Below are positions 3,245 to 63,633 of a stretch of 64,000 bases of DNA, piece by piece. Under the pieces are notes generated by a model. That model saw only the letters and a program-made list of their open reading frames with translations. It was not told the origin of the DNA and ran no database searches. This DNA is from Candidatus Microgenomates bacterium (GTDB lineage: Bacteria; Patescibacteriota; JACPGU01), in assembly GCA_016188915.1 (NCBI GenBank), contig JACPGU010000001.1, positions 123,106 through 187,105 of the forward strand, written 5' to 3'. How positions within the stretch are numbered: the stretch's first letter is position 1; each line of letters begins with the position of its first letter. A program made the translations under genes and the position numbers.

Positions 3245-3798
3245 AAACAAAAACCAAATTCTACTTCTACTTATTATTAAATTTTCCAGGTATTGCGACG
3301 CACGAACTGTCGCATGCTATTTTCTGCTGGCTTTCGGGAGTAAAGGTGACGAAAGTCGTCTTCTTTCAATTCAAAAATCCTCCGGGCTTCGTGGAGCACC
3401 ACCAGCCTCGTGGCGTTCTTCAATCATTTTTCATCTCCTTCGGCCCCTTCTTTTTTGGTAGTTTTGTTTCTCTTTCTATGTTCTGGATTGTAAGTTACAT
3501 GTTGAGAAGTTCTTTTTCTTCATACTTAATACCTGATACTCAATACTTAATACTGATGTTTGTCTCTCTCTACCTCGGTCTCTCCGTCTCCCTCAATCTC
3601 TTTCCCAGCGACGAAGATGCGAAGGTCTTGCTCTCCAATGTCAATTATCATGTCTTGCACCGTTTCAATCCCTTCGCCGTTCTGCTCTATCCTTTTGTTT
3701 TACTAATTCGTCTTTTTAATTTTCTCCGTCGCGTCCATTTTGACTGGGCGTATGCGATCTTTCTTTTTTTGCTAACCTGGTATTTCATCAATGAGTAG
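3241..3798 (+). CDS. multi-pass membrane protein with HExxH motif (putative membrane zinc metallopeptidase, DUF3267-like)
   Basis: Starts ATGA overlapping the PIN stop. THELSHAIFCWLSG contains HExxH, followed by several hydrophobic segments. Confidence 0.5.
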   Translation: MKTKTKFYFYLLLNFPGIATHELSHAIFCWLSGVKVTKVVFFQFKNPPGFVEHHQPRGVLQSFFISFGPFFFGSFVSLSMFWIVSYMLRSSFSSYLIPDTQYLILMFVSLYLGLSVSLNLFPSDEDAKVLLSNVNYHVLHRFNPFAVLLYPFVLLIRLFNFLRRVHFDWAYAIFLFLLTWYFINE

Positions 3799-3825
3799 GA
3801 CACGACGTTCGACCTCGTGTCCTAG
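3796..3825. repeat. palindromic repeat family 1, copy 1 (TAGGACACGACGTTCGACCTCGTGTCCTA, one arm mismatch)
   Basis: Near-perfect 29-nt palindrome. Related copies at 10223-10253 and 49105-49151. Confidence 0.7.
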
Positions 3826-4518: not shown

Positions 4519-4629
4519 CTCCTCATCAATCTCCCCCTCACTTTTTTTTAAAAAATTTCAAACACGACCTATAACTCACGGCTTGCCCCGCATCCTTCAT
4601 GGTGCGTGGGTCGTGAGTTATAGGTCATA
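4519..4629. repeat. repeat family 2, copy A
   Basis: Shares the core ctcatcaatctcc ... ttcaaacacgacctataactcacggc plus the spacer with the copy at 6044-6147, and contains a divergent inverted partner arm (tcgtgagttataggtc). Confidence 0.6.
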
Positions 4630-4650: not shown

Positions 4651-4680
4651 CAACAAAAAGAGGGAGACGAGTCTCCCTCT
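4651..4680 (-). terminator. rho-independent terminator downstream of 412-aa hypothetical gene
   Basis: AGAGGGAGAC-GA-GTCTCCCTCT hairpin. On the minus strand it is followed by TTTTTG. Confidence 0.5.
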
Positions 4681-4701: not shown

Positions 4702-5940
4702 TTATTTCTTGATGGCCTTTTTTATGGCCAGAGCCAAAGCGGCATACAGCTCCGCGGGGGTATAGTCACTCGGTGGCTTCAGACCCTGGATAGCCAAATG
4801 TGCTCGCGCAAAATCTTTCAGTTTCCGCGTGTGCTCAGCGATTGCTATCAGAGCCAAGACCTTGTCGTGATTAAACACTATCCTCGCCATTTCCTTGCGC
4901 GCGGCAGAGAGACACCTCTGACTCAGCCGTATCTTTACGATGGACAGCCGGGCGCGATCCACATCGGCAGAGCTTCGATAATCATTGCATTCAAGACAAG
5001 AATGTACGCTCTTTACAAGAGCATCAACCTCTTCTCGAGTGACGCCAGGAACTGTGGCTTCTGCGCAAAGAAGCTCAATGTAGTCAGAACCATACATCCA
5101 GTTGCTTCTAAGCGACTTTTTTAGGTCATCCGCTTTTTTGGTGTAGGAAGCTCCTTTCCCTTCGTCATTCTTCGCCAGATAGGCGGAAGCGATGAATCTG
5201 TAGGCCAAAGTTTTTTGGTAATCATTCGAAATGTTTTCGGCCACTTCTTCCGCCCCCACAAAATCCCCTATTTTGAGCTGCGCTTTCACTAATGAAAATC
5301 GCGCTTTTGCCATAATCCCAGAGTTACGAATGAGGCAAAGGTTCATCAGGGCTTCCTCTATAAACTTCGCATCCCCGCTTTTTTCTGCCATCATTGCTCG
5401 GCATCGCACTCTGCTTGGGGAGGATGCGGAAGTAAGTTTCCCAAGAGCCTTCTCCGCAAGACCGTCATGCCCGTGCTCAAGCAGAGACTCCACAAGAGAG
5501 GCGGCCATCCAACCATCCTGACGGGCCGACTGAACTTCTTCTAGCGCCCGGTCAAAATCCGCCTTCTCGCCTGTGATGGCCGCGATATAGCAAAGCGTCT
5601 CTTCTTGTCGAGACCATTGCATATCTTTCCTTTTCTCGAGCAACAATCGCACTTCAACGATCAATTCTTCCAATCTTGTCTGAAGTGCAATTTGATTATA
5701 GATGTCAAGCAAAATTTGCAGATCCCGATCGAGACCTGAGCCCCCACCACCTTCCTCGAGTAATCGGTTGTAGTCGCGAAGCAAAACCTGCAATGTCTGA
5801 CTGGAATCTGGGTCGGCGACGATTCTTTCGAGTAATTGTCTTAATTGTCCTACCGTTGGCCTTCTTCCCATCACGCACCTCTTGTTAAAGAATTTCCGCC
5901 AGTAGTTTATTGTGGCGAAATAGCACGCCAAGCGCGCCAT
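4702..5940 (-). CDS. hypothetical alpha-helical protein, higher GC than flanks (likely start at 5871)
   Basis: Long ORF rich in Ala/Leu/Arg/Glu. No recognised domain. Flanked on both sides by repeat family 2. Possible paralog at 58809-60134. Confidence 0.45.
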   Translation of the reverse strand: MARLACYFATINYWRKFFNKRCVMGRRPTVGQLRQLLERIVADPDSSQTLQVLLRDYNRLLEEGGGGSGLDRDLQILLDIYNQIALQTRLEELIVEVRLLLEKRKDMQWSRQEETLCYIAAITGEKADFDRALEEVQSARQDGWMAASLVESLLEHGHDGLAEKALGKLTSASSPSRVRCRAMMAEKSGDAKFIEEALMNLCLIRNSGIMAKARFSLVKAQLKIGDFVGAEEVAENISNDYQKTLAYRFIASAYLAKNDEGKGASYTKKADDLKKSLRSNWMYGSDYIELLCAEATVPGVTREEVDALVKSVHSCLECNDYRSSADVDRARLSIVKIRLSQRCLSAARKEMARIVFNHDKVLALIAIAEHTRKLKDFARAHLAIQGLKPPSDYTPAELYAALALAIKKAIKK

Positions 5941-6043: not shown

Positions 6044-6147
6044 TTTCTCATCAATCTCCACCTAATTTCAAATCAAATTCAAACACGACCTATAACTCAC
6101 GGCCCACGCACCATGAAGGATGCAGGGCAAGCCGTGAGTTAGCGTAG
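6044..6147. repeat. repeat family 2, copy B (internal spacer inverted relative to copy A)
   Basis: Same left arm acacgacctataactcacggc. The spacer ccacgcaccatgaaggatgcagggcaa is the reverse complement of the copy A spacer. Confidence 0.6.
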
Positions 6148-10220: not shown

Positions 10221-10222
10221 TA

Positions 10223-10253
10223 CTAGGACACGACGTTCGACGTCGTGTCCTAG
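10223..10253. repeat. palindromic repeat family 1, copy 2 (perfect 31-nt palindrome CTAGGACACGACGTTCGACGTCGTGTCCTAG)
   Basis: Perfect palindrome seen directly. Confidence 0.7.
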
Positions 10254-10256
10254 TAG

Positions 10257-26020: not shown

Positions 26021-26042
26021 AGAAAATCTGCTAAAACTAAAT

Positions 26043-26082
26043 AACTACTCTTTTCTATGCTATAGCTTTGAAAAGAGTAGTT
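26043..26082. repeat. palindromic repeat family 3, copy 1 (AACTACTCTTTT...AAAAGAGTAGTT)
   Basis: 12-bp perfect arms. Second copy at 28976-29019. Confidence 0.6.
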
Positions 26083-26133
26083 ATTATTTCAAGAATATTG
26101 CGTATTGCTTAGAGATCTGCGATACCATTGGCT

Positions 26134-47240: not shown

Positions 47241-48206
47241 TTAGATTTCAGATTTTAGATTTATGAATCCACCGATAATCTCTTCTGTTTCTTTATAGTC
47301 TTTCGCCTCCATCAGTTTCTTCCGCAGATCGCTTGCTCCGGGAAAATCCGCGCAATAAATCTTGAAAAACTTTTTCATCTTGGCGAATTTCACCCCTTTG
47401 CCCCAAAATTTTTCAAATAATTTCGCATGCTCAATTGCGAGCTTTAATTTTTTAATTTTTTGGTTTTTTACTTTCTTATTTTCAAAAATCCAAGGATTTT
47501 TGAATATCCCTCTCCCAATCATCACGCCATCACAACCGGTTTTTTCGGCCAAAGCCTTCCCTTCTTCAATTGAGCCGACATCGCCATTGCCGATGATCAA
47601 AACTCCCGAACCCTTGGCGATTTCCACCGCGTCTTTTATCCTCTCCCAACGCGCCGGCACCTTGGACATTTCTTTTCTTGTTCGCGCGTGAATAATGATG
47701 GCTTCTGGTTTTTCGGCGAGGAGTTCGGGCAGCCATTCTTCCAAAATATCGGTATTAAATCCCAGCCGTGTCTTGATAGACAAAGGAAGATTCGGCGCGC
47801 CGGCTTTGGCCGCCCTTATTATCTCGCGCGCCAATTGCGGATTTTTCATCAGCGCCGCGCCCGCGCCTTGTTTTTCTATTGTTTTGTCCGGACAACCCAT
47901 ATTGATATCCAGCCCGTCAAAGCCGAGCTTTGCCACCAAACGCGCCGCCTCTTCCATTTTTTCTGGATTGGCCGTAAAAAGCTGGGCGATAATTGGTCTT
48001 TCCTGTTCTGTAAATCGCAAATTTTTCAAAAGCTTTTTTCGACCCACCGAGCACAGCCCATTGGCCGAAACGAATTCGGTATAGAGCACATCCGGCTTGC
48101 CGAAACGCACCACCATTTGCCGAAAAACCGGATCAGTCACATCCGCCATCGGAGCCAAGACGAAAAAAGGCTTCGGTAATTTGTGCCAAAAAGATTTATT
48201 TGCCAT
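47241..48206 (-). CDS. tRNA-dihydrouridine synthase
   Basis: FVLAPMADVTDPVFR, LDINMGCP, Dus TIM-barrel signature. Confidence 0.85.
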   Translation of the reverse strand: MANKSFWHKLPKPFFVLAPMADVTDPVFRQMVVRFGKPDVLYTEFVSANGLCSVGRKKLLKNLRFTEQERPIIAQLFTANPEKMEEAARLVAKLGFDGLDINMGCPDKTIEKQGAGAALMKNPQLAREIIRAAKAGAPNLPLSIKTRLGFNTDILEEWLPELLAEKPEAIIIHARTRKEMSKVPARWERIKDAVEIAKGSGVLIIGNGDVGSIEEGKALAEKTGCDGVMIGRGIFKNPWIFENKKVKNQKIKKLKLAIEHAKLFEKFWGKGVKFAKMKKFFKIYCADFPGASDLRKKLMEAKDYKETEEIIGGFINLKSEI

Positions 48207-49104: not shown

Positions 49105-49151
49105 CTAGGACACGACGTTCGACGTCGTGTCCCCAATTCGACGTCGTGTCC
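49105..49151. repeat. palindromic repeat family 1, copy 3 (with partial tandem duplication of one arm)
   Basis: CTAGGACACGACGTTCGACGTCGTGTCC followed by CCAATTCGACGTCGTGTCCCC. Confidence 0.7.
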
Positions 49152-49226: not shown

Positions 49227-50099
49227 TCATTTCCCTAGATTTTTCTGAAAAATTATTAGCGCTTCTTCTAATGCCCATTCAGGATTTTCAGAAGAAAAAT
49301 TCTCAAAATTTAAATCTCGGCGAAACCGATCGGACAAGGCCGCCAGCCCCGCCAAAATTGTCAATTGCTGAGCAGGATTGTCCATATTGTGACCACCGAA
49401 CTGGTAACCCTCATTCTTGGTGACATGGCCATTCATGGGGTTAATGCCACAGGCGTCTCCCGGACAACTGACATTGAGCCAGCCCGTGTCATAATCAATA
49501 GAGGCGCGGAAGTTATATTTCTCAAACTTGCTTAGCGGTCCATACATTCTCCGATGAGCCCGAATCATCGCCTCTACCATTTCCGGACGAGAGGTCTGAG
49601 CCGGAAAAGAACTAAGATATCGTCCCAGACTTAGACTGAAATCGCCACTTATGGATCCTCCGTGCATATCTTTCAAAGTGGCGAAATCGATCGTCATGAT
49701 TTGTGGCTCCTTGGATGAGGTATTCTCCTTCGGATGAAAGGCCCAGAAGCCAAAGAAGCATAGACTGGCCGAAATGGCAAAGGCTTCTTGGTAGTCACAC
49801 CAAAAATCGTATCCACCTCCTTCGCAACAGGGGCATCTTCCTTCGTGATACGGATGCTTTTTGCTCCCTCCGCAGAACCGACACTTTTCTTCCGTTCGTT
49901 TTTTCACCCTCGGAATAAGAGCGGAAAGCACGATGAAATCTTTTGGTTGCCTTTTTACCGGAACAAAAGCGCCATCAAAGCCAAAACCTTGGCTAAAGTC
50001 AGAACAAAATGCCTGAAAGCCAAATTTTTTTTTGAAATCTGCGATGATAGGCGCTTGAGGCGCACTCTTTTGCCGTCCCAAGAAAAACGGTACCAGCAC
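49227..50099 (-). CDS. hypothetical Cys-containing protein, higher GC; 5' region overlaps an alternative frame (possible frameshift)
   Basis: CRFCGGSKKHPYHEGRCPCCEGGGY cluster, no known domain. Overlapping ORF 49955-50245 in another frame across an A9 run. Confidence 0.35.
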   Translation of the reverse strand: MLVPFFLGRQKSAPQAPIIADFKKKFGFQAFCSDFSQGFGFDGAFVPVKRQPKDFIVLSALIPRVKKRTEEKCRFCGGSKKHPYHEGRCPCCEGGGYDFWCDYQEAFAISASLCFFGFWAFHPKENTSSKEPQIMTIDFATLKDMHGGSISGDFSLSLGRYLSSFPAQTSRPEMVEAMIRAHRRMYGPLSKFEKYNFRASIDYDTGWLNVSCPGDACGINPMNGHVTKNEGYQFGGHNMDNPAQQLTILAGLAALSDRFRRDLNFENFSSENPEWALEEALIIFQKNLGK

Positions 50100-50257
50100 G
50101 GTCTATCGGCGTAGCGAATGTTGACTATATCTCCCATGGCGATCCCGCCCTTTCTTTTTGGATTTTTAAGGCGACAAAAACCAAGCCCTCCGAGAGCTTG
50201 GTCAATTGTTAGCTTAATTATAACAAAGAAAATCTCCCGCCACAATCTAAAACAGAT

Positions 50258-52498
50258 TTAGCCTCTTTTTTTAATCCGCAAACTATTGACTACCACCGAC
50301 ACGGAAGAAAAGGCCATGGCTCCCGCCGCAATCATCGGACTCAAGAGCCCTACCGCCGCCAGTGGAATAGCCGCCGCATTGTAGGCAAAGGCCCAGAAAA
50401 GATTTTGCTGTATAACACGAAAAGTTTTTTGCGAAAGAGCAATCGCTTCTACCACCTTCATCGGACTGCCTTTGACAATCACGATGTTGCCCGCTTCAAT
50501 GGCGATGTCCGTTCCCGTTCCCATGGCGATGCCGAAATCTGATTGCGCCAAAGCCGGCGCGTCGTTGATACCATCGCCGATAAAAGCGATTTTCTTCCCC
50601 TCCTCCTGCAATTTTTTGACAATAGCCGCTTTTTCCTGTGGCAGAACTTCGGCAAAAATCTGATCTATTTTAAGTTCTCGGCCGATAGCTTCGGCGGTTT
50701 TTTGATTGTCGCCGGTAATCATTATTGCCGCGATATTTTTATTTTTTAATTGTCTGATCGCTTCTACCGCGTCCGGCTTTACCGTGTCGGCGATAGCGAC
50801 AAGACCCAAAATCTCTTTTTCTCTGACAATCATCACCACTGTCTTGGCTTCAGCTTGGAGTTTCCGCAAAAAAGTTTCATCCTTCAATTTTACGCCCAAT
50901 TCTTCCGCCATTTTCTCGTTGCCTACCGCCACCTGTTTCCCGCCAATAAATCCTTTAACTCCCTTGCCGGCCACATTTTCAAATTTTTCCACTTCCAGCA
51001 ATTTCACTCCGTCTTTCTCCGCCCTCTCCACGATCGCTCGCGCCAGAGGATGGTCAGAATTTTTGTCGAGCGAGGCGGCTACTGTCAGCACACCCCGAGG
51101 AGACACCTCGGGGCTCCCCGAGGTGTCTCCTCGGGGGATAACAACGATATCCGTTACCACCGGCTTCCCCTCCGTCAGGGTCCCGGTTTTGTCAAAAATC
51201 ACCGCGTCAATTTTTTTGCCTTTTTCTAAAGACTCGCCGTTTTTGATGAGGATTCCTTTTTTCGCTCCCAGCCCTGTCCCGACCATGATGGCCGTAGGCG
51301 TAGCCAGACCGAGCGCGCAAGGACAAGCGATGACCAAGACCGCCACGGCTGGCACGAAAGCGGAAGCGATGTCACCTGTCGCCCAATACCAAATGCCAAA
51401 AGTAATAATAGCAATCAAGAAAACCACCGGCACAAAGATAGAAGAGATCTTGTCCGCCAATTTTTGAATCGGCGCTTTTTGCGTCTGCGCGTCAGAGACC
51501 ATTTGGACGATTTGGGAGAGGACAGTTTCAGCCCCCACCTTGGTCGCTTTCATAATAATCACGCCGTTGATATTGATGGTGGCGGCAAAAACTCCATCGA
51601 AGATATTTTTTTCTACCGGCATACTCTCGCCGGTCAGCATAGATTCATCAATAGTCGTCTCTCCTTTTGTAATTTCTCCGTCAGTCGGGATTTTTTCACC
51701 CGGCAAAACACGCAGGGTGTCTCCTACTTGCACTTGTTCAATCGGAATCTCTTTTTCTTGGTCACCTTCTACTAGTCGCGCGGTCTTGGCGCCCAATTTC
51801 AGCAATTTCTCAATCGCCTCACTCGCTTGTCCGCGACTTTTGGCTTCAAAATAGCGCCCTAGTAAAATCAGCGCCGTAATCACCGCGCCGATTTCAAAAT
51901 ACAGGTCCTTTCCTCCGGAAGACAATTCCCAAAAGCTAAAGATCAGAGCCGCCAAAGTACCGACAGAAATCAGCGTATTCATATCGGCGGAAAAATAGCG
52001 TAATTGTTTGGCCGCGCCACGGTGAAATTCCCAACCGATGACAAGAATGACGACGGTGGACAATACTGCTTCAATAATCATGCTGGCGTTGAAACCAAAA
52101 TACTCCCAGGGCAATTCTATTTTGCCCATGGCTATAATCAGTGGCGGTAAGGCTAGAATAAGCGCGATAATTGCCCTGTTTCTGGCTTTCAAAGTTTCAG
52201 CCGATCCCGAAGGATGGTGATGGGAGTGGTCCGCCTTATGAGACGAAGCATGCCTGCCCGCCGAAATGGAGGGCTTCGTCTCTACATGATCCATTACGGC
52301 TTTGTAGCCAACCTTTGCTACTGCCTGATGGAGATCGTGTTCGGAAGCCAGATTTTCGTCAAATTCTACCGTGGCGCTCCGCAACGCCAGATTGACCGAA
52401 GCGGATTTGACGCCCGGCACTTTTTGTAGCGCTTTTTCGTTTTTTAGAACACAGCTGGCGCAATGCAAACCCTCAATGGCAAAAGTTGTTTTTTTCAT
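50258..52498 (-). CDS. copA: copper-translocating P-type ATPase
   Basis: N-terminal HMA (GLHCASC), CPC in TM6, DKTGTLT, GDGINDAP. Carries an in-frame 44-nt palindromic insertion. Confidence 0.92.
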   Translation of the reverse strand: MKKTTFAIEGLHCASCVLKNEKALQKVPGVKSASVNLALRSATVEFDENLASEHDLHQAVAKVGYKAVMDHVETKPSISAGRHASSHKADHSHHHPSGSAETLKARNRAIIALILALPPLIIAMGKIELPWEYFGFNASMIIEAVLSTVVILVIGWEFHRGAAKQLRYFSADMNTLISVGTLAALIFSFWELSSGGKDLYFEIGAVITALILLGRYFEAKSRGQASEAIEKLLKLGAKTARLVEGDQEKEIPIEQVQVGDTLRVLPGEKIPTDGEITKGETTIDESMLTGESMPVEKNIFDGVFAATININGVIIMKATKVGAETVLSQIVQMVSDAQTQKAPIQKLADKISSIFVPVVFLIAIITFGIWYWATGDIASAFVPAVAVLVIACPCALGLATPTAIMVGTGLGAKKGILIKNGESLEKGKKIDAVIFDKTGTLTEGKPVVTDIVVIPRGDTSGSPEVSPRGVLTVAASLDKNSDHPLARAIVERAEKDGVKLLEVEKFENVAGKGVKGFIGGKQVAVGNEKMAEELGVKLKDETFLRKLQAEAKTVVMIVREKEILGLVAIADTVKPDAVEAIRQLKNKNIAAIMITGDNQKTAEAIGRELKIDQIFAEVLPQEKAAIVKKLQEEGKKIAFIGDGINDAPALAQSDFGIAMGTGTDIAIEAGNIVIVKGSPMKVVEAIALSQKTFRVIQQNLFWAFAYNAAAIPLAAVGLLSPMIAAGAMAFSSVSVVVNSLRIKKRG
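51093..51136. repeat. 44-nt perfect palindrome inside copA coding sequence (CCCCGAGGAGACACCTCGGGG-CT-CCCCGAGGTGTCTCCTCGGGG)
   Basis: Seen directly. Encodes PRGDTSGSPEVSPRG between DKTGTLTEGKP and the N-domain. Confidence 0.8.
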
Positions 52499-54117: not shown

Positions 54118-54149
54118 ATAGAGTATTGATGATTATTTTACGAGAGTTA

Positions 54150-54195
54150 CGAAGGAGAGACCTTCGGATCCTCTGAGTCGAAGGTCTCTCCTTCG
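54150..54195. promoter_or_regulatory. 17-bp perfect inverted repeat (CGAAGGAGAGACCTTCG-N12-CGAAGGTCTCTCCTTCG) upstream of the HMA-membrane gene; candidate metalloregulator operator
   Basis: Perfect IR 35-80 bp upstream of the minus-strand start at 54117. Confidence 0.5.
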
Positions 54196-54256
54196 TGGGA
54201 AATCTTAAGCAACGCAAAAAGGCGTATTCAAATACGTCAAAGAAAATCAGGAGAAC

Positions 54257-54715: not shown

Positions 54716-56167
54716 TCATTTCATTTTTTTTCTCAACACTTCCATCACCACCTCCGGGTTGGCTTGGCCACGGGTCACCTTCATCACTTGCCCGACAAAA
54801 AAGCCGAGGATTTCTGTCTTGCCGGCGCGGTATTGCGCCACCGGCCCGGGATTGGCGGCAATAATTTCCTGAATGATTTTCTCCAGCTCTCCAATATCCG
54901 AGATCTGCTTGATACCTTCGGCAGATATAATTTCATCCGCGCTCCGACCGCTCTCCGCCATTTTGGCAAAAACATCTTTGGCTATTTTACTAGAAATCTC
55001 GCCCGACTCGATCTTGCTCGCCAAATCTGCCAGATCAGTTGGTTTGATTTTGAAATCGGCAATCGTTTGATTGTTAGCGTTCAGATAACCCAAAACATCG
55101 GTCAAAAGTAAAGAGGCGGTCTTTTTTCGTAGAGACAATTCATGAATTGTCTCTACCGCAGTTTCAAAATACCCTGCTAGATCTATATCACCGACAAAAA
55201 CTTCCGTGTCTTTCTCATTCAACCCAAAATCTTTCCCATATCTCTCTCTTTTCTCCGCCGGTAGCTCCGGTATTTGTCGTTTTAATTCTTCTAAGTCAAA
55301 TGCCTGTTTGTGATTTGAGATTTGTGATTTGTCGTTTCCGACGCGAAGCGGAGGCAAGTCTGGTTCCGGAAAGTACCGGTAGTCATGCGCCTGTTCCTTA
55401 CTCCTCTGCGAAAAAGTTTTTTGCTTCGCCTCGTCCCAACCGCGCGTTTCTTGCGTCACCTTCCCGCCTTCCTCCAAAATTTCTGTCTGCCTTTTGATCT
55501 CGTACGCCAACGCCTTTTCCACTGACGCAAAAGAATTCATATTTTTCACCTCCGCTTTTTTGCCCAGCTCTTTCTGTCCCACGGGACGAACAGAGATATT
55601 AGCATCGCACCGCAAATGTCCTTTTTCCATATCGGCATCAGAAATGTCAAGATAACGCAAGATGAGGCGCAATTCCTGCATGAAAGTTTTGGCCTCTTGT
55701 GGCGTAGAAAAACACGGATTAGTAACGATTTCCAAAAGTGGCGTTCCCGCGCGATTCAAATCCACCAGCGAATAGTCGCCAGCGTGGATTAATTTCCCCG
55801 CGTCTTCTTCGAGGTGGATGTGTTCGATGGTGAAAGTTTTGCTGTCAATCTCTAGCTCTCCTCCTACCAACGGCGGGGTGGTCTGACTGGTTATCTGATA
55901 CGCCTTTGGTAGGTCGGGATAGAAATATTGCTTGCGTTCAAAATTAAATTGGGGCGAGATCTGGCACCCCAAGGCTAGACCCAAAAGATAGGTCCATTCC
56001 AGCGCTTGACGATTGGCGACCGGCAAAGTCCCGGGATGCCCCATGCACACGGGACAAGTGACGGTATTAGGCTCTTTGCCTTCGGCGTCATTATCGCAAC
56101 TACAAAACATCTTGCTCTTTGTTTTGAGCTGGCAGTGGATTTCCAGACCGATGACTGGTTCGTACAT
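54716..56167 (-). CDS. gatB: aspartyl/glutamyl-tRNA amidotransferase subunit B
   Basis: MYEPVIGLEIHCQL...CSCDN...CPVCMGHPGTLPV N-terminal GatB signature. Full length. Confidence 0.93.
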   Translation of the reverse strand: MYEPVIGLEIHCQLKTKSKMFCSCDNDAEGKEPNTVTCPVCMGHPGTLPVANRQALEWTYLLGLALGCQISPQFNFERKQYFYPDLPKAYQITSQTTPPLVGGELEIDSKTFTIEHIHLEEDAGKLIHAGDYSLVDLNRAGTPLLEIVTNPCFSTPQEAKTFMQELRLILRYLDISDADMEKGHLRCDANISVRPVGQKELGKKAEVKNMNSFASVEKALAYEIKRQTEILEEGGKVTQETRGWDEAKQKTFSQRSKEQAHDYRYFPEPDLPPLRVGNDKSQISNHKQAFDLEELKRQIPELPAEKRERYGKDFGLNEKDTEVFVGDIDLAGYFETAVETIHELSLRKKTASLLLTDVLGYLNANNQTIADFKIKPTDLADLASKIESGEISSKIAKDVFAKMAESGRSADEIISAEGIKQISDIGELEKIIQEIIAANPGPVAQYRAGKTEILGFFVGQVMKVTRGQANPEVVMEVLRKKMK

Positions 56168-57971: not shown

Positions 57972-58802
57972 ATGTTCTGCTATTTCAACGACAAAATAGT
58001 GCCTCTGGAAGAAATCAAAATCTCACCCTATGATTTAGGCTTTTTGCGCGGTTTTGGTGTTTTTGATTTCCTCCGCACCTATGGCGGGAAACCATTTCGA
58101 TTGGCTGACCATATCAAAAGATTTCGAGCCAGCGCCAATATCACCAAACTCCCCGTCCCCTATTCCGATGGGAAAATAATGGAGCTGACCGAAGAATTAT
58201 TGGAAAAAAACGGCCGACCGGAGTGCTGTATCAGAATCATGCTCTCGGGTGGTGTAGAACCAAAACTTACCGCGCCGACTTTTCTGATTTTAATTGAACC
58301 CCTCCATACTTTTCCATCCGAATGTTATACGAAAGGTATCAAGGTCGCGACTATTAACGAGCATCGACTTTATCCGACAGCCAAAACGACCTGCTATTTG
58401 CCGGCATTGAAAGCCCAACAAGAATTAAAAAATGAAAATCCTTTTGAAGTTATCTACGCGCCCGACGGCAATGTCTTGGAGGCCTCCACCGCCAACATTT
58501 TCATTGTCAAAAATGGAAAGCTCATCACGCCAAAAGATGGTATTCTGCTTGGTATCACCCGACAGGTGGTGCTAGAGCTATCTGTAGAGACGAAGCATGC
58601 TTCGTCTCTACAGGCGACAGAGTCCGTAATCGTCCTTCAAGAATTATATACCGCCAATGAATGTTTCCTGACCGCCAGCAACAAAGAAATAATGCCGGTA
58701 ACCGAAATAGACGGCCGAAAAATCGGTGATGGGCAAGTGGGCAAAATAACGAAAGAAGTGATGAAACGATTTACCGAATATACAGGCGTTGCTATAGTTT
58801 GA
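57972..58802 (+). CDS. class IV PLP-dependent aminotransferase (branched-chain/D-amino-acid aminotransferase family)
   Basis: Fold-type IV sequence character (FLRGFGVFDFLRTYGGKPF..., conserved Lys region, E..ANIF). Confidence 0.8.
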   Translation: MFCYFNDKIVPLEEIKISPYDLGFLRGFGVFDFLRTYGGKPFRLADHIKRFRASANITKLPVPYSDGKIMELTEELLEKNGRPECCIRIMLSGGVEPKLTAPTFLILIEPLHTFPSECYTKGIKVATINEHRLYPTAKTTCYLPALKAQQELKNENPFEVIYAPDGNVLEASTANIFIVKNGKLITPKDGILLGITRQVVLELSVETKHASSLQATESVIVLQELYTANECFLTASNKEIMPVTEIDGRKIGDGQVGKITKEVMKRFTEYTGVAIV

Positions 58803-60246: not shown

Positions 60247-60289
60247 GAACACGACCTATAACTCACGGCCGTGAGTTATAGGTCGTGTT
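60247..60289. repeat. repeat family 2, copy C (40-nt perfect palindrome ACACGACCTATAACTCACGGCCGTGAGTTATAGGTCGTGT)
   Basis: Seen directly. Same arm sequence as copies A and B, but with no spacer. Confidence 0.7.
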
Positions 60290-63055: not shown

Positions 63056-63397
63056 CTACCCTGAAATTAAGAGAATTATTTTTTCTTGCAGTTCTTTGAA
63101 AGTATTATTAGCTACTTTTTCTACAAAAGCAACTCCGCGGCTTTGCCAATCAATACTTTTGAGCTGATCGGACAAAATAGCCCCTGTTATTTTCTTGCCG
63201 TTGTGCGCGACTTCAAAAGGATATGTTTTTATTTTGGAGGTAACAGGACAAACGAGCGCGAGTCCTGATCTTTCGTTATAATCTTTTGGCGAAACAACAA
63301 CAGCCGGCCTCCTGCCTTTCTGCTCGTGACCAGATGTAGTGTAAAAATCAACCCAAATACAATCTCCTCTTTCGGGAACATATTTTGTTTTCACCAC
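63056..63397 (-). CDS. mazF: MazF/PemK-family toxin (endoribonuclease)
   Basis: VPERGDCIWVDF...RPAVVVSP...LVCPVTSKIK...AILSDQLKSIDWQSR matches the MazF/PemK fold. Confidence 0.8.
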   Translation of the reverse strand: MVKTKYVPERGDCIWVDFYTTSGHEQKGRRPAVVVSPKDYNERSGLALVCPVTSKIKTYPFEVAHNGKKITGAILSDQLKSIDWQSRGVAFVEKVANNTFKELQEKIILLISG

Positions 63398-63633
63398 ACT
63401 TCCTTTCCCTTTGCATCACCCCAACTAATATGTTCCGGCAGATTTTGAGGGGATATTTTCTTGACGAGATCGACTAGAGTAGTATTTTTTTTCCTAATCG
63501 GCTGAACGACTATATGTTTTCTCCCAGCAACGATAGTAACTGCTACTCCTTCTGACAGATGATAGTGTTCGGCAATGTCTTTGGGTAGACGCACCGCCAG
63601 ACTATTACCCCACTTTTGAACTTTAGTCGTCAT
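63391..63633 (-). CDS. mazE: MazE-like antitoxin (AbrB/SpoVT-type swapped hairpin)
   Basis: VQKWGNSLAVRLPKDIAEHYHLSEGVAV matches MazE. Overlaps mazF by 7 nt. The AGTAGTATCTACT palindrome at 63645-63657 just upstream is a likely operator. Confidence 0.75.
   Translation of the reverse strand: MTTKVQKWGNSLAVRLPKDIAEHYHLSEGVAVTIVAGRKHIVVQPIRKKNTTLVDLVKKISPQNLPEHISWGDAKGKEVW

Follow-up and report, generated by a model that had tools for sequence, protein, structure and literature searches.

An ultra-small, untagged palindrome resembling a REP doublet lies in frame within the copA gene of a candidate phyla radiation bacterium

Repetitive extragenic palindromic (REP) sequences are hairpin units of 20-40 nt that carry a terminal GTAG or CGTC tag and lie mostly outside genes, and two inverted units joined into a larger hairpin constitute a REPIN, a concept reportedly introduced by Bertels and Rainey (2011). 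The usual location of REPs is the region just 3' of genes (PMC3733652). Intragenic REPs are documented exceptions, over half of which occur as dimers or groups, with the dimers encoding 20-30 residues (Di Nocera et al. 2013, PMC3733652). Here, we analysed a 64,000-nt stretch of DNA from Candidatus Microgenomates bacterium (contig JACPGU010000001.1; hereafter, the window), in which a 44-nt palindrome at 51093-51136 lies in frame within the minus-strand gene copA, encoding a copper-pump-type ATPase. The feature is real and represents an ultra-small, untagged, intragenic element resembling a REP doublet in a bacterium of the candidate phyla radiation (CPR). With moderate confidence, we read it as an intragenic, REPIN-like doublet of a 21-nt REP-like hairpin that would belong to a CPR family with a GAGAC/AGAC core and is tolerated in a surface loop.

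Other mobile-looking elements of tens of nucleotides, hairpin or double-hairpin in form and sometimes intragenic, include the very small dispersed repeats (SDRs) of cyanobacteria and the double-hairpin elements of chytrid mitochondria, which belong to other lineages and have other sequences. Rickettsia palindromic elements (RPEs), of about 150 bp (PMC10969869), resemble the copA element as in-frame palindromic repeats in unrelated housekeeping genes, tolerated at the protein surface, in host-dependent organisms with small genomes. RPEs span ~100-150 bp and are numerous within each genome; they specify a conserved peptide, and the identity of their repeats is lost over time, whereas the copA element measures 44 nt and has perfect arms. 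It falls outside the RPE families, and only the behaviour is common to the two. Nematomorpha mitochondria likewise harbour coding palindromes, for which we know of no shared sequence family or transposase. Like the elements described here, these are perfect inverted repeats within functional genes, gained and lost between relatives, and their 'binary' perfection suggests active conversion of one arm to the other (PMC6649704). They differ in being mitochondrial, in reaching up to 284 bp and in their coding content, which in either arm is a conserved part of the protein and not an extra loop (PMC6649704).

The copA palindrome is composed of two 21-nt arms, CCCCGAGGAGACACCTCGGGG at 51093-51113 and CCCCGAGGTGTCTCCTCGGGG at 51116-51136, which are 100% complementary and enclose a 2-nt centre, CT; this centre lacks self-complementarity, which leaves 42 palindromic positions out of 44. 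Taken alone, each arm forms a hairpin whose 8-bp stem (CCCCGAGG/CCTCGGGG) closes a 5-nt loop, AGACA or TGTCT, and the second unit equals the first with its loop inverted, producing a nested double hairpin overall. In the coding direction, the first unit (51116-51136, minus strand) reads CCCCGAGG-AGACA-CCTCGGGG and encodes PRGDTSG, the spacer (51114-51115, AG on the coding strand) holds the sole non-palindromic positions, and the second unit (51093-51113), the exact reverse complement of the first, reads CCCCGAGG-TGTCT-CCTCGGGG, encodes (S)PEVSPRG and has GGTGTCTCCTCGGGG as its outer 15 nt. The coding strand, ATC CCC CGA GGA GAC ACC TCG GGG AGC CCC GAG GTG TCT CCT CGG GGT, is translated as I-PRGDTSGSPEVSPRG, with the 45 bases at 51092-51136 specifying P455-G469, nine residues past DKTGTLTEGKP. 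No stop codon occurs in any of the six frames of the 44-mer. The segment is bounded by ...GTTATC/CCCC...GGGG/TGTGC and has a GC content of 75%, compared with 49% for the copA gene and 37-50% across the window. Folding of an 84-nt RNA context yielded a single 20-bp stem of -55.7 kcal/mol (z = -8.3), a stability matched by 0 of 200 shuffles, and the 21-mer itself had 0 occurrences in 100 shuffles. A unit length within the REP range and two inverted units that collapse into one larger hairpin, the 20-bp minimum-free-energy stem, are thus features held in common with REPs and REPINs.

The host gene (50258-52498, minus strand) encodes a 746-aa copA-type heavy-metal P1B ATPase containing an HMA domain, a CPC motif, DKTGT and GDGINDAP, with Pfam matches to HMA, E1-E2_ATPase and Hydrolase (HAD). 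C392-P393-C394, D436-T440 and G641-P648 are invariant over 17 aligned CopA homologs, placing the protein among CopA-type P1B ATPases, and it is 100% identical to P0001, a 'heavy metal translocating P-type ATPase [Candidatus Microgenomates bacterium]'. The palindrome recurs letter for letter in another assembly of this organism (Logan contig L003, run SRR12113422), which differs from the window by a 52-nt indel ~1 kb from the palindrome, indicating that the two assemblies were built independently. The original prediction of a 44-nt in-frame palindrome within copA, made from the letters of the window, is confirmed by these data. The indel itself concerns the gene directly downstream of copA: L003 (2521-2574) carries 52 bases more than the window at ~50063 (between 50062 and 50065), and with them a 320-aa hypothetical gene is intact in L003, whereas the same gene is broken in the window into open reading frames (ORFs) at 49955-50245 and 49227-50099, both on the minus strand. 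Either the population carries a deletion that shifts the frame, or one of the two records is misassembled here.

In the alignment of the 17 CopA proteins, the window's CopA has eight more loop residues between VTD and the AAS(L/V)E helix than P0002, the nearest ortholog (83% identity, 732 aa), and than most of the 16 homologs compared, which upholds the earlier claim that canonical CopA proteins lack the segment. At the DNA level, the ortholog contig L001 is 85-95% identical in the flanks and unalignable in the loop, with a net difference of 24 nt; because the loop has diverged and no relative exceeds 83% identity, exact insertion boundaries are not settable. An AlphaFold2 model built on the CopA alignment, with a mean predicted local distance difference test (pLDDT) score of 69.9, has a DSSP-assigned coil at residues 454-466 between a strand (442-453) and a helix (467-478), and pLDDT falls below 50 at residues 458-462. 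As modelled, the segment fits a tolerated surface loop at the junction of the P-domain and the N-domain. The predicted in-frame insertion into a tolerated surface loop therefore stands as regards the low-pLDDT coil and the extra length, but not as a clean insertion of 44 or 45 nt, given the 24-nt net difference and the diverged loop. The loop was rejected as a general hot spot for palindromes: P0024, the only other homolog with eight extra residues, carries at this position a (CTACAAC)x4 heptanucleotide microsatellite encoding LQPTTYNLQP (L015, ~5350-5380) and no palindrome, so the loop takes extra sequence of any origin.

The main evidence for a dispersed sequence family rather than a local accident is, at the sequence level, a match in an unrelated gene of a distant genome. 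The 21-mer has three matches among JGI metagenome contigs, two of which are single hairpins in GC-rich contigs (L004 and L006, 63-67% GC). The sole match in GTDB representative genomes, a long hairpin with a 17-bp stem in Pedococcus cremeus (GC 71%), was judged an unrelated terminator-like hairpin or chance, and all three hairpins are treated as unrelated, since each lacks a second arm and a coding context and differs in composition. No second copy of the element was found in GTDB representative genomes, phage records or plasmid records, viral contigs gave no match, and Rfam returned nothing at the gathering threshold, only far-sub-threshold matches to generic miRNA hairpins. The third JGI match, L005 (Ga0334722_10002272, 42% GC), places the 21-mer within rseP, the gene for a site-2 protease. 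Its coding strand reads ATT CCCCGAGGAGACACCTCGGGG ACATACAAA GGTGTCTCCTCGGGG AAA and encodes I-PRGDTSG-TYK-GVSSG-K; the copA and rseP copies have in common the 21-mer, the preceding Ile codon, the frame (PRGDTSG) and the inverted 15-nt partner, with total lengths of 44 nt and 45 nt, respectively. No direct repeat flanks the rseP copy (ATT/.../AAA), which is identical in contigs of three samples (ENA, JGI and Logan; L005 and L012-L014). RseP and RRF of this host are only 32-36% identical to the window's own copies, identifying it as a distant lineage and the locus as non-homologous to copA, and the RseP homologs are labelled Parcubacteria/Zambryskibacteria. The idea of a mobile element in the original prediction gains from this match in its family aspect, with the same 21-mer, frame and inverted partner recurring at a non-homologous locus of a distant CPR genome. 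Elsewhere in L005, the coding sequence of holB (DNA polymerase III delta') includes a 25-nt inverted repeat at 2372-2445 (84% complementary, 24-nt spacer), possibly another in-frame palindromic insertion in the second host.

RseP relatives were aligned as protein and DNA and their hairpins folded, focusing on the loop that follows FGGFVKIFGEN. Relative to L005 (RseP 100%, the reference, carrying the 21-mer element with its 15-nt inverted partner), L007 (78% identity) contains CCCAAAGGAGACACC...CCCAAAGGTGTCTCCTTTGGG, in which CG is replaced by AA on one arm and TT appears on the other, paired changes that leave a 15-18-nt inverted repeat perfect. The L010 loop (84%) holds a double hairpin built to the same plan but of another sequence, CCAAGGGT-A-ACCCTTGG, a spacer and CCAAGGGT-T-ACCCTTGG, with 19-nt perfect arms; its second hairpin has an ortholog in L008 (90%), where TCCAAGGCC-G-GGCCTTGGA is the only one present. 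The hairpin is weaker in L016 (85%) and nearly absent in L017 (74%). Judged from these alignments, a hairpin is long-lived at the rseP site, with stems that evolve by paired substitutions.

A candidate mobilising enzyme is encoded on L017/L018, a sister contig of the second host. This 221-aa gene matches Pfam Y1_Tnp (PF01797, 2.7e-9), contains the HFH and YIHLNP motifs and has as its sole NCBIfam match 'REP-associated tyrosine transposase' (RAYT), at 37.8 bits, below the 80-bit equivalog cut-off. It is inserted between proS and the small gene that follows rseP, a position where five relatives carry no insert, and an identical 41-nt direct repeat, ATTATACCACACATTTAAAC-TTCCAAAGAGACTCCTTGGAA, lies on both sides of it. 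The terminal 21 nt of this repeat (TTCCAAAGAGACTCCTTGGAA) form a hairpin with the 8+5+8 geometry and the AGAC core of the copA arm; in our position-by-position comparison, it is identical to the copA arm at 13 of 21 positions and to the L010 rseP hairpin at 15 of 21. In having a related hairpin on either side of a RAYT-like Y1 gene, this relative of the second host recalls the REP/RAYT system.

Six 21-mers, from copA (identical to that of L005), L007, the L017 flank, L010, L008 and a hairpin upstream of the copA operon in the window, align without gaps and share C3, A6, G8, C14, C15, T16 and G19 as invariant positions. Four of the eight stem pairs change on both sides and none on one side only, and the observed covariation was reached by 0 of 500 shuffles; 93.8% of cells are paired, a value that is partly circular because the aligned hairpins were picked by eye as hairpins. 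The informative points are the common geometry, the invariant core and the absence of G-U-type changes.

We propose that such hairpins fold in single-stranded DNA, with a RAYT-like HUH/Y1 tyrosine transposase as the most likely agent of their movement or copying. Intrastrand template switching at replication would then account for the doubling of resident hairpins and for the lasting identity of their arms, which is consistent with the comparisons between sister genomes. The copA copy would persist because it occupies a variable loop between the β-strand that follows DKTGT and the first helix of the nucleotide-binding domain, where it brings no stop in any frame, keeps the reading frame and adds only a 15-residue surface coil rich in Pro, Gly and Ser, presumably neutral for CopA function.

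Several observations weigh against this reading or set the element apart from known REPs, in addition to the partial circularity of the hairpin alignment. The GTAG or CGTC tag is absent from the copA element, which is therefore not filed under the described GTAG/CGTC REP superfamilies. REPs are mostly extragenic and 3' of genes, whereas the copA copy is intragenic; the spacer of only 2 nt gives a 44-nt doublet, copy number in the sequence covered is very low, and the hosts here are CPR bacteria. The search for further 21-mer copies suggested in the original prediction found none in the 64-kb window, even at up to 3 mismatches. The exact 21-mer is single-copy in roughly 20-kb regions of the second host, and the L017 flank hairpin has no further copies across 20 kb of the contig that carries it. 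Neither a Pfam scan of ~40 window ORFs nor tblastn detected a Y1 transposase, and tblastn with an approximate IS200 TnpA query gave no match. In this loop, copA exceeds its nearest ortholog by a net 24 nt, not by 44-45 nt, and the flanking loop sequence has diverged. No target-site duplication is visible at copA, where the ATC/.../TGT flanks contain no direct repeat, and CopA proteins closer than 83% identity are absent among 5.8 billion sequences, leaving no empty-site allele.

The palindrome had initially been labelled as resembling a miniature inverted-repeat transposable element (MITE), a comparison that fares less well. MITEs, too, are non-autonomous and bounded by terminal inverted repeats, and they are able to form in-frame fusions with host ORFs, but they measure 70-300 bp, derive from insertion sequences (ISs) of the DDE type and create target-site duplications, whereas the copA and rseP elements span 44-48 nt. 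ORF scans detected no IS element in the window. MITE identity was rejected, the element being too small and having neither a target duplication nor a parent IS; it resembles a REP doublet instead.

The main rival of the REPIN-like reading is a purely local origin, in which intrastrand or inter-strand template switching copied a short resident loop hairpin in inverted orientation and perfected the arms, with no mobile element involved and with the identity to rseP arising as convergence among GC-rich hairpins. We regard this as somewhat unlikely, although it accounts for both the doublet and its perfection. The net gain of 24 nt corresponds to about one 21-nt unit plus the spacer, and in the L001 ortholog the alignment, read by eye, places a weak 5-bp hairpin (AACCG...CGGTT) at this position. 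At the rseP site, L010 contains the resident hairpin of the L008 type plus an inverted copy 11 nt upstream, so the doublet itself needs no transposition, a further count against the REPIN-like reading; insertion as one unit, implied in the original prediction, is not required either, since double hairpins at related sites can also form by local inverted duplication. The arms match each other within a genome rather than the arms of relatives, and the agreement of the inverted rseP unit with its own genome's resident unit points to concerted evolution or repeated local inverted duplication, the expected product of replication template switching. Stem changes are always two-sided and never of G-U type, suggesting a copying process at the DNA level. 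Cases in which template switching generates hairpins and makes them perfect are documented (PMC8794818, PMC13100816), and the process has been proposed for the coding palindromes of Nematomorpha mitochondria (PMC6649704). A local origin leaves unexplained, however, the identical 21-mer and 15-nt partner in the same frame of another gene, in a genome whose core proteins are ~33% identical, as well as the 75% GC of the segment in a 44-49% GC genome and the recurrence of the core in the hairpins flanking the Y1 transposase.

A cis-acting structure selected in copA mRNA or DNA, acting as a translation pause that aids folding, an RNase III or decay site that adjusts pump expression, or a protein-binding site, is very unlikely. 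The perfect 20-bp stem is very stable at -55.7 kcal/mol, 20 bp being about the minimum length for an RNase III substrate, and it is positioned exactly at a domain junction. A nested double hairpin of the same architecture (54149-54196; CGAAGG-AGAGA-CCTTCG, 12 nt, CGAAGG-TCTCT-CCTTCG) lies in the intergenic region ~30-45 nt upstream of the dsbD/cupredoxin-copA operon, with a positional counterpart of other sequence in L001 (2703-2744; CGAAGGAGAGACCTTCG in the window vs GAGGTTCGACCTT in L001); it could be an operator, a 5'-untranslated-region structure or another REP-like doublet. The gatB and rseP loops also keep palindromes across relatives while the sequences change. Yet neither the closest copA ortholog nor any of about 15 further homologs shows such a structure in the loop, which in another homolog is filled by the (CTACAAC)x4 microsatellite, and the operon-upstream hairpin is absent in L015. 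The same element occurs in unrelated genes, its complementarity extends through both loops and thereby exceeds the needs of an RNA function, and no Rfam family matches it.

That the palindrome is an artefact of assembly or sequencing, for instance of a chimeric fold-back read, is extremely improbable: fold-back can yield perfect palindromes and the data consist of metagenome assemblies only, but two assemblies that differ elsewhere are identical at the palindrome, the frame is open through a conserved 746-aa protein and the related rseP copy is identical in three samples.

A count of perfect palindromes (arms of 11 nt or more, loops of 6 nt or less) gave 13 for the whole window, compared with ~0.2 in shuffles. 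GAGAC/GTCTC is the most enriched 5-mer of inverted-repeat arms, occurring in 7 of 30 perfect arms against 0.4 expected (about 17-fold). Two GAGAC-core hairpins, AGAGGGAGAC-GA-GTCTCCCTCT (4659-4680) and CTCCGTCTCT-CGCA-AGAGACGGAG (31293-31316), are located 22 nt past the stop of the minus-strand gene at 4702-5940 and 18 nt past that of the minus-strand gene at 31334-31762, respectively; this spacing of 18-22 nt 3' of stop codons is a likeness to REPs. Another is that some copies lie in frame within conserved genes and encode short peptides. In prmC, an imperfect double hairpin (42395-42437, plus strand; GAAGGCTAAGCCTTC, 11 nt, GAAGGATTAGCCTTC) is translated in frame as RRLSLHASSEGLAFV.

Two unrelated genes carry a sibling element, GTAGAGACGAAGCATGCTTCGTCTC, in frame. 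The gene for a class-IV aminotransferase holds it as a perfect 32-nt palindrome (58582-58613, plus strand; CTGTAGAGACGAAGCA/TGCTTCGTCTCTACAG) read as VETKHASSLQ, and in the N-terminal linker of copA, an interrupted copy of the same element (52240-52285, minus strand) comprises GTAGAGACGAAGC, 20 nt and CATGCTTCGTCTC. The gene for the highly conserved enzyme GatB contains a 28-nt palindrome (55129-55156, minus strand; GTAGAGACAATTCA/TGAATTGTCTCTAC) that reads VETIHELSL in frame and has the form GTAGAGAC-N4-CATG-N4-GTCTCTAC. The GTAGAGAC element is present at 2-3 window loci; complete copies of the full form number four, two in the window and two in L001, and all read VETxHxxSL, with one other frame containing TAG. 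GTAG is present in this GTAGAGAC...GTCTCTAC family.

In L001, GTAGAGAC-type palindromes occupy two copA sites, one of which is orthologous to the N-terminal one of the window (alignment columns 100-125) and holds a different GTAGAGAC palindrome. L001 gatB carries a different, 46-nt perfect palindrome in the exact loop that holds the 28-nt palindrome of the window. Relative to the window gatB, it also displays a clean 63-nt in-frame insertion (L001 455-517) with 13-nt perfect inverted repeats, GAAGTCCGACATC...GATGTCGGACTTC, adding 21 residues.

The remaining palindromes of the window include a perfect 46-mer at 28975-29020 and a related AT-rich palindrome at 26040-26085, ATTAACTACTCTTTTTTACGCTT/AAGCG...; the former lies directly upstream of a minus-strand gene (28338-28919) with a PaaX_M/Cas2-like domain and is thus probably an operator for that regulator. 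A family of intergenic hairpins after gene ends, (TAG)GACACGACGT-TCG-ACGTCGTGTCC(TA), is represented at 3796-3824, 10221-10255 and 49108-49132; it is REP-like or terminator-like, with a GTAG-like foot in part of its members, and L003 has the same copy as 49108. Intergenic palindromes at 4566-4626, 6093-6141 and 60248-60289 share GACCTATAACTCACGG / CCGTGAGTTATAGGTC, the 60248 copy being a perfect 42-mer. A 24-nt AT-rich perfect palindrome at 47481-47504, TTCAAAAATCC-AA-GGATTTTTGAA, encodes FKNPWIFE in a dihydrouridine-synthase-like gene (47241-48206, minus strand) and may reflect chance and codon usage. At the edge of the core ribosomal and translation gene region, a PemK/MazF-type toxin gene (63056-63397) and a small upstream ORF (63391-63633) are probably a toxin-antitoxin pair.

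Literature searches for in-frame palindromic elements, the candidate phyla radiation included, returned no report in CPR coding sequences, which is weak evidence of absence. It is conceivable, though distinctly unlikely, that CPR bacteria have an active system that writes hairpins of up to 45 nt into coding loops of essential genes, copies them between loci and distant lineages and continually re-perfects them, the agent being a RAYT-like Y1 enzyme, a template-switch bias or both, and the hairpins possibly being used as translation pauses or RNase III sites that tune copA and other genes. If the REP/REPIN-type reading is true, miniature hairpin elements also reside within essential genes of small-genome CPR bacteria, and REP/RAYT-type hairpins would not be confined to the intergenic DNA of Proteobacteria-like genomes. 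Reduced CPR genomes would then be colonised in the coding loops of core genes (copA, gatB, rseP, prmC and the aminotransferase gene) by elements shared across deep lineages. Such elements would be a ready source of new surface loops in protein evolution and would account for unexplained 'insertions' in the annotation and alignment of CPR proteins, with relevance for strain typing and for the stability of perfect palindromes in genomes with minimal repair machinery. For the Y1 transposases of CPR bacteria, which have been little studied, the 21-nt hairpin would serve as a small substrate open to testing.

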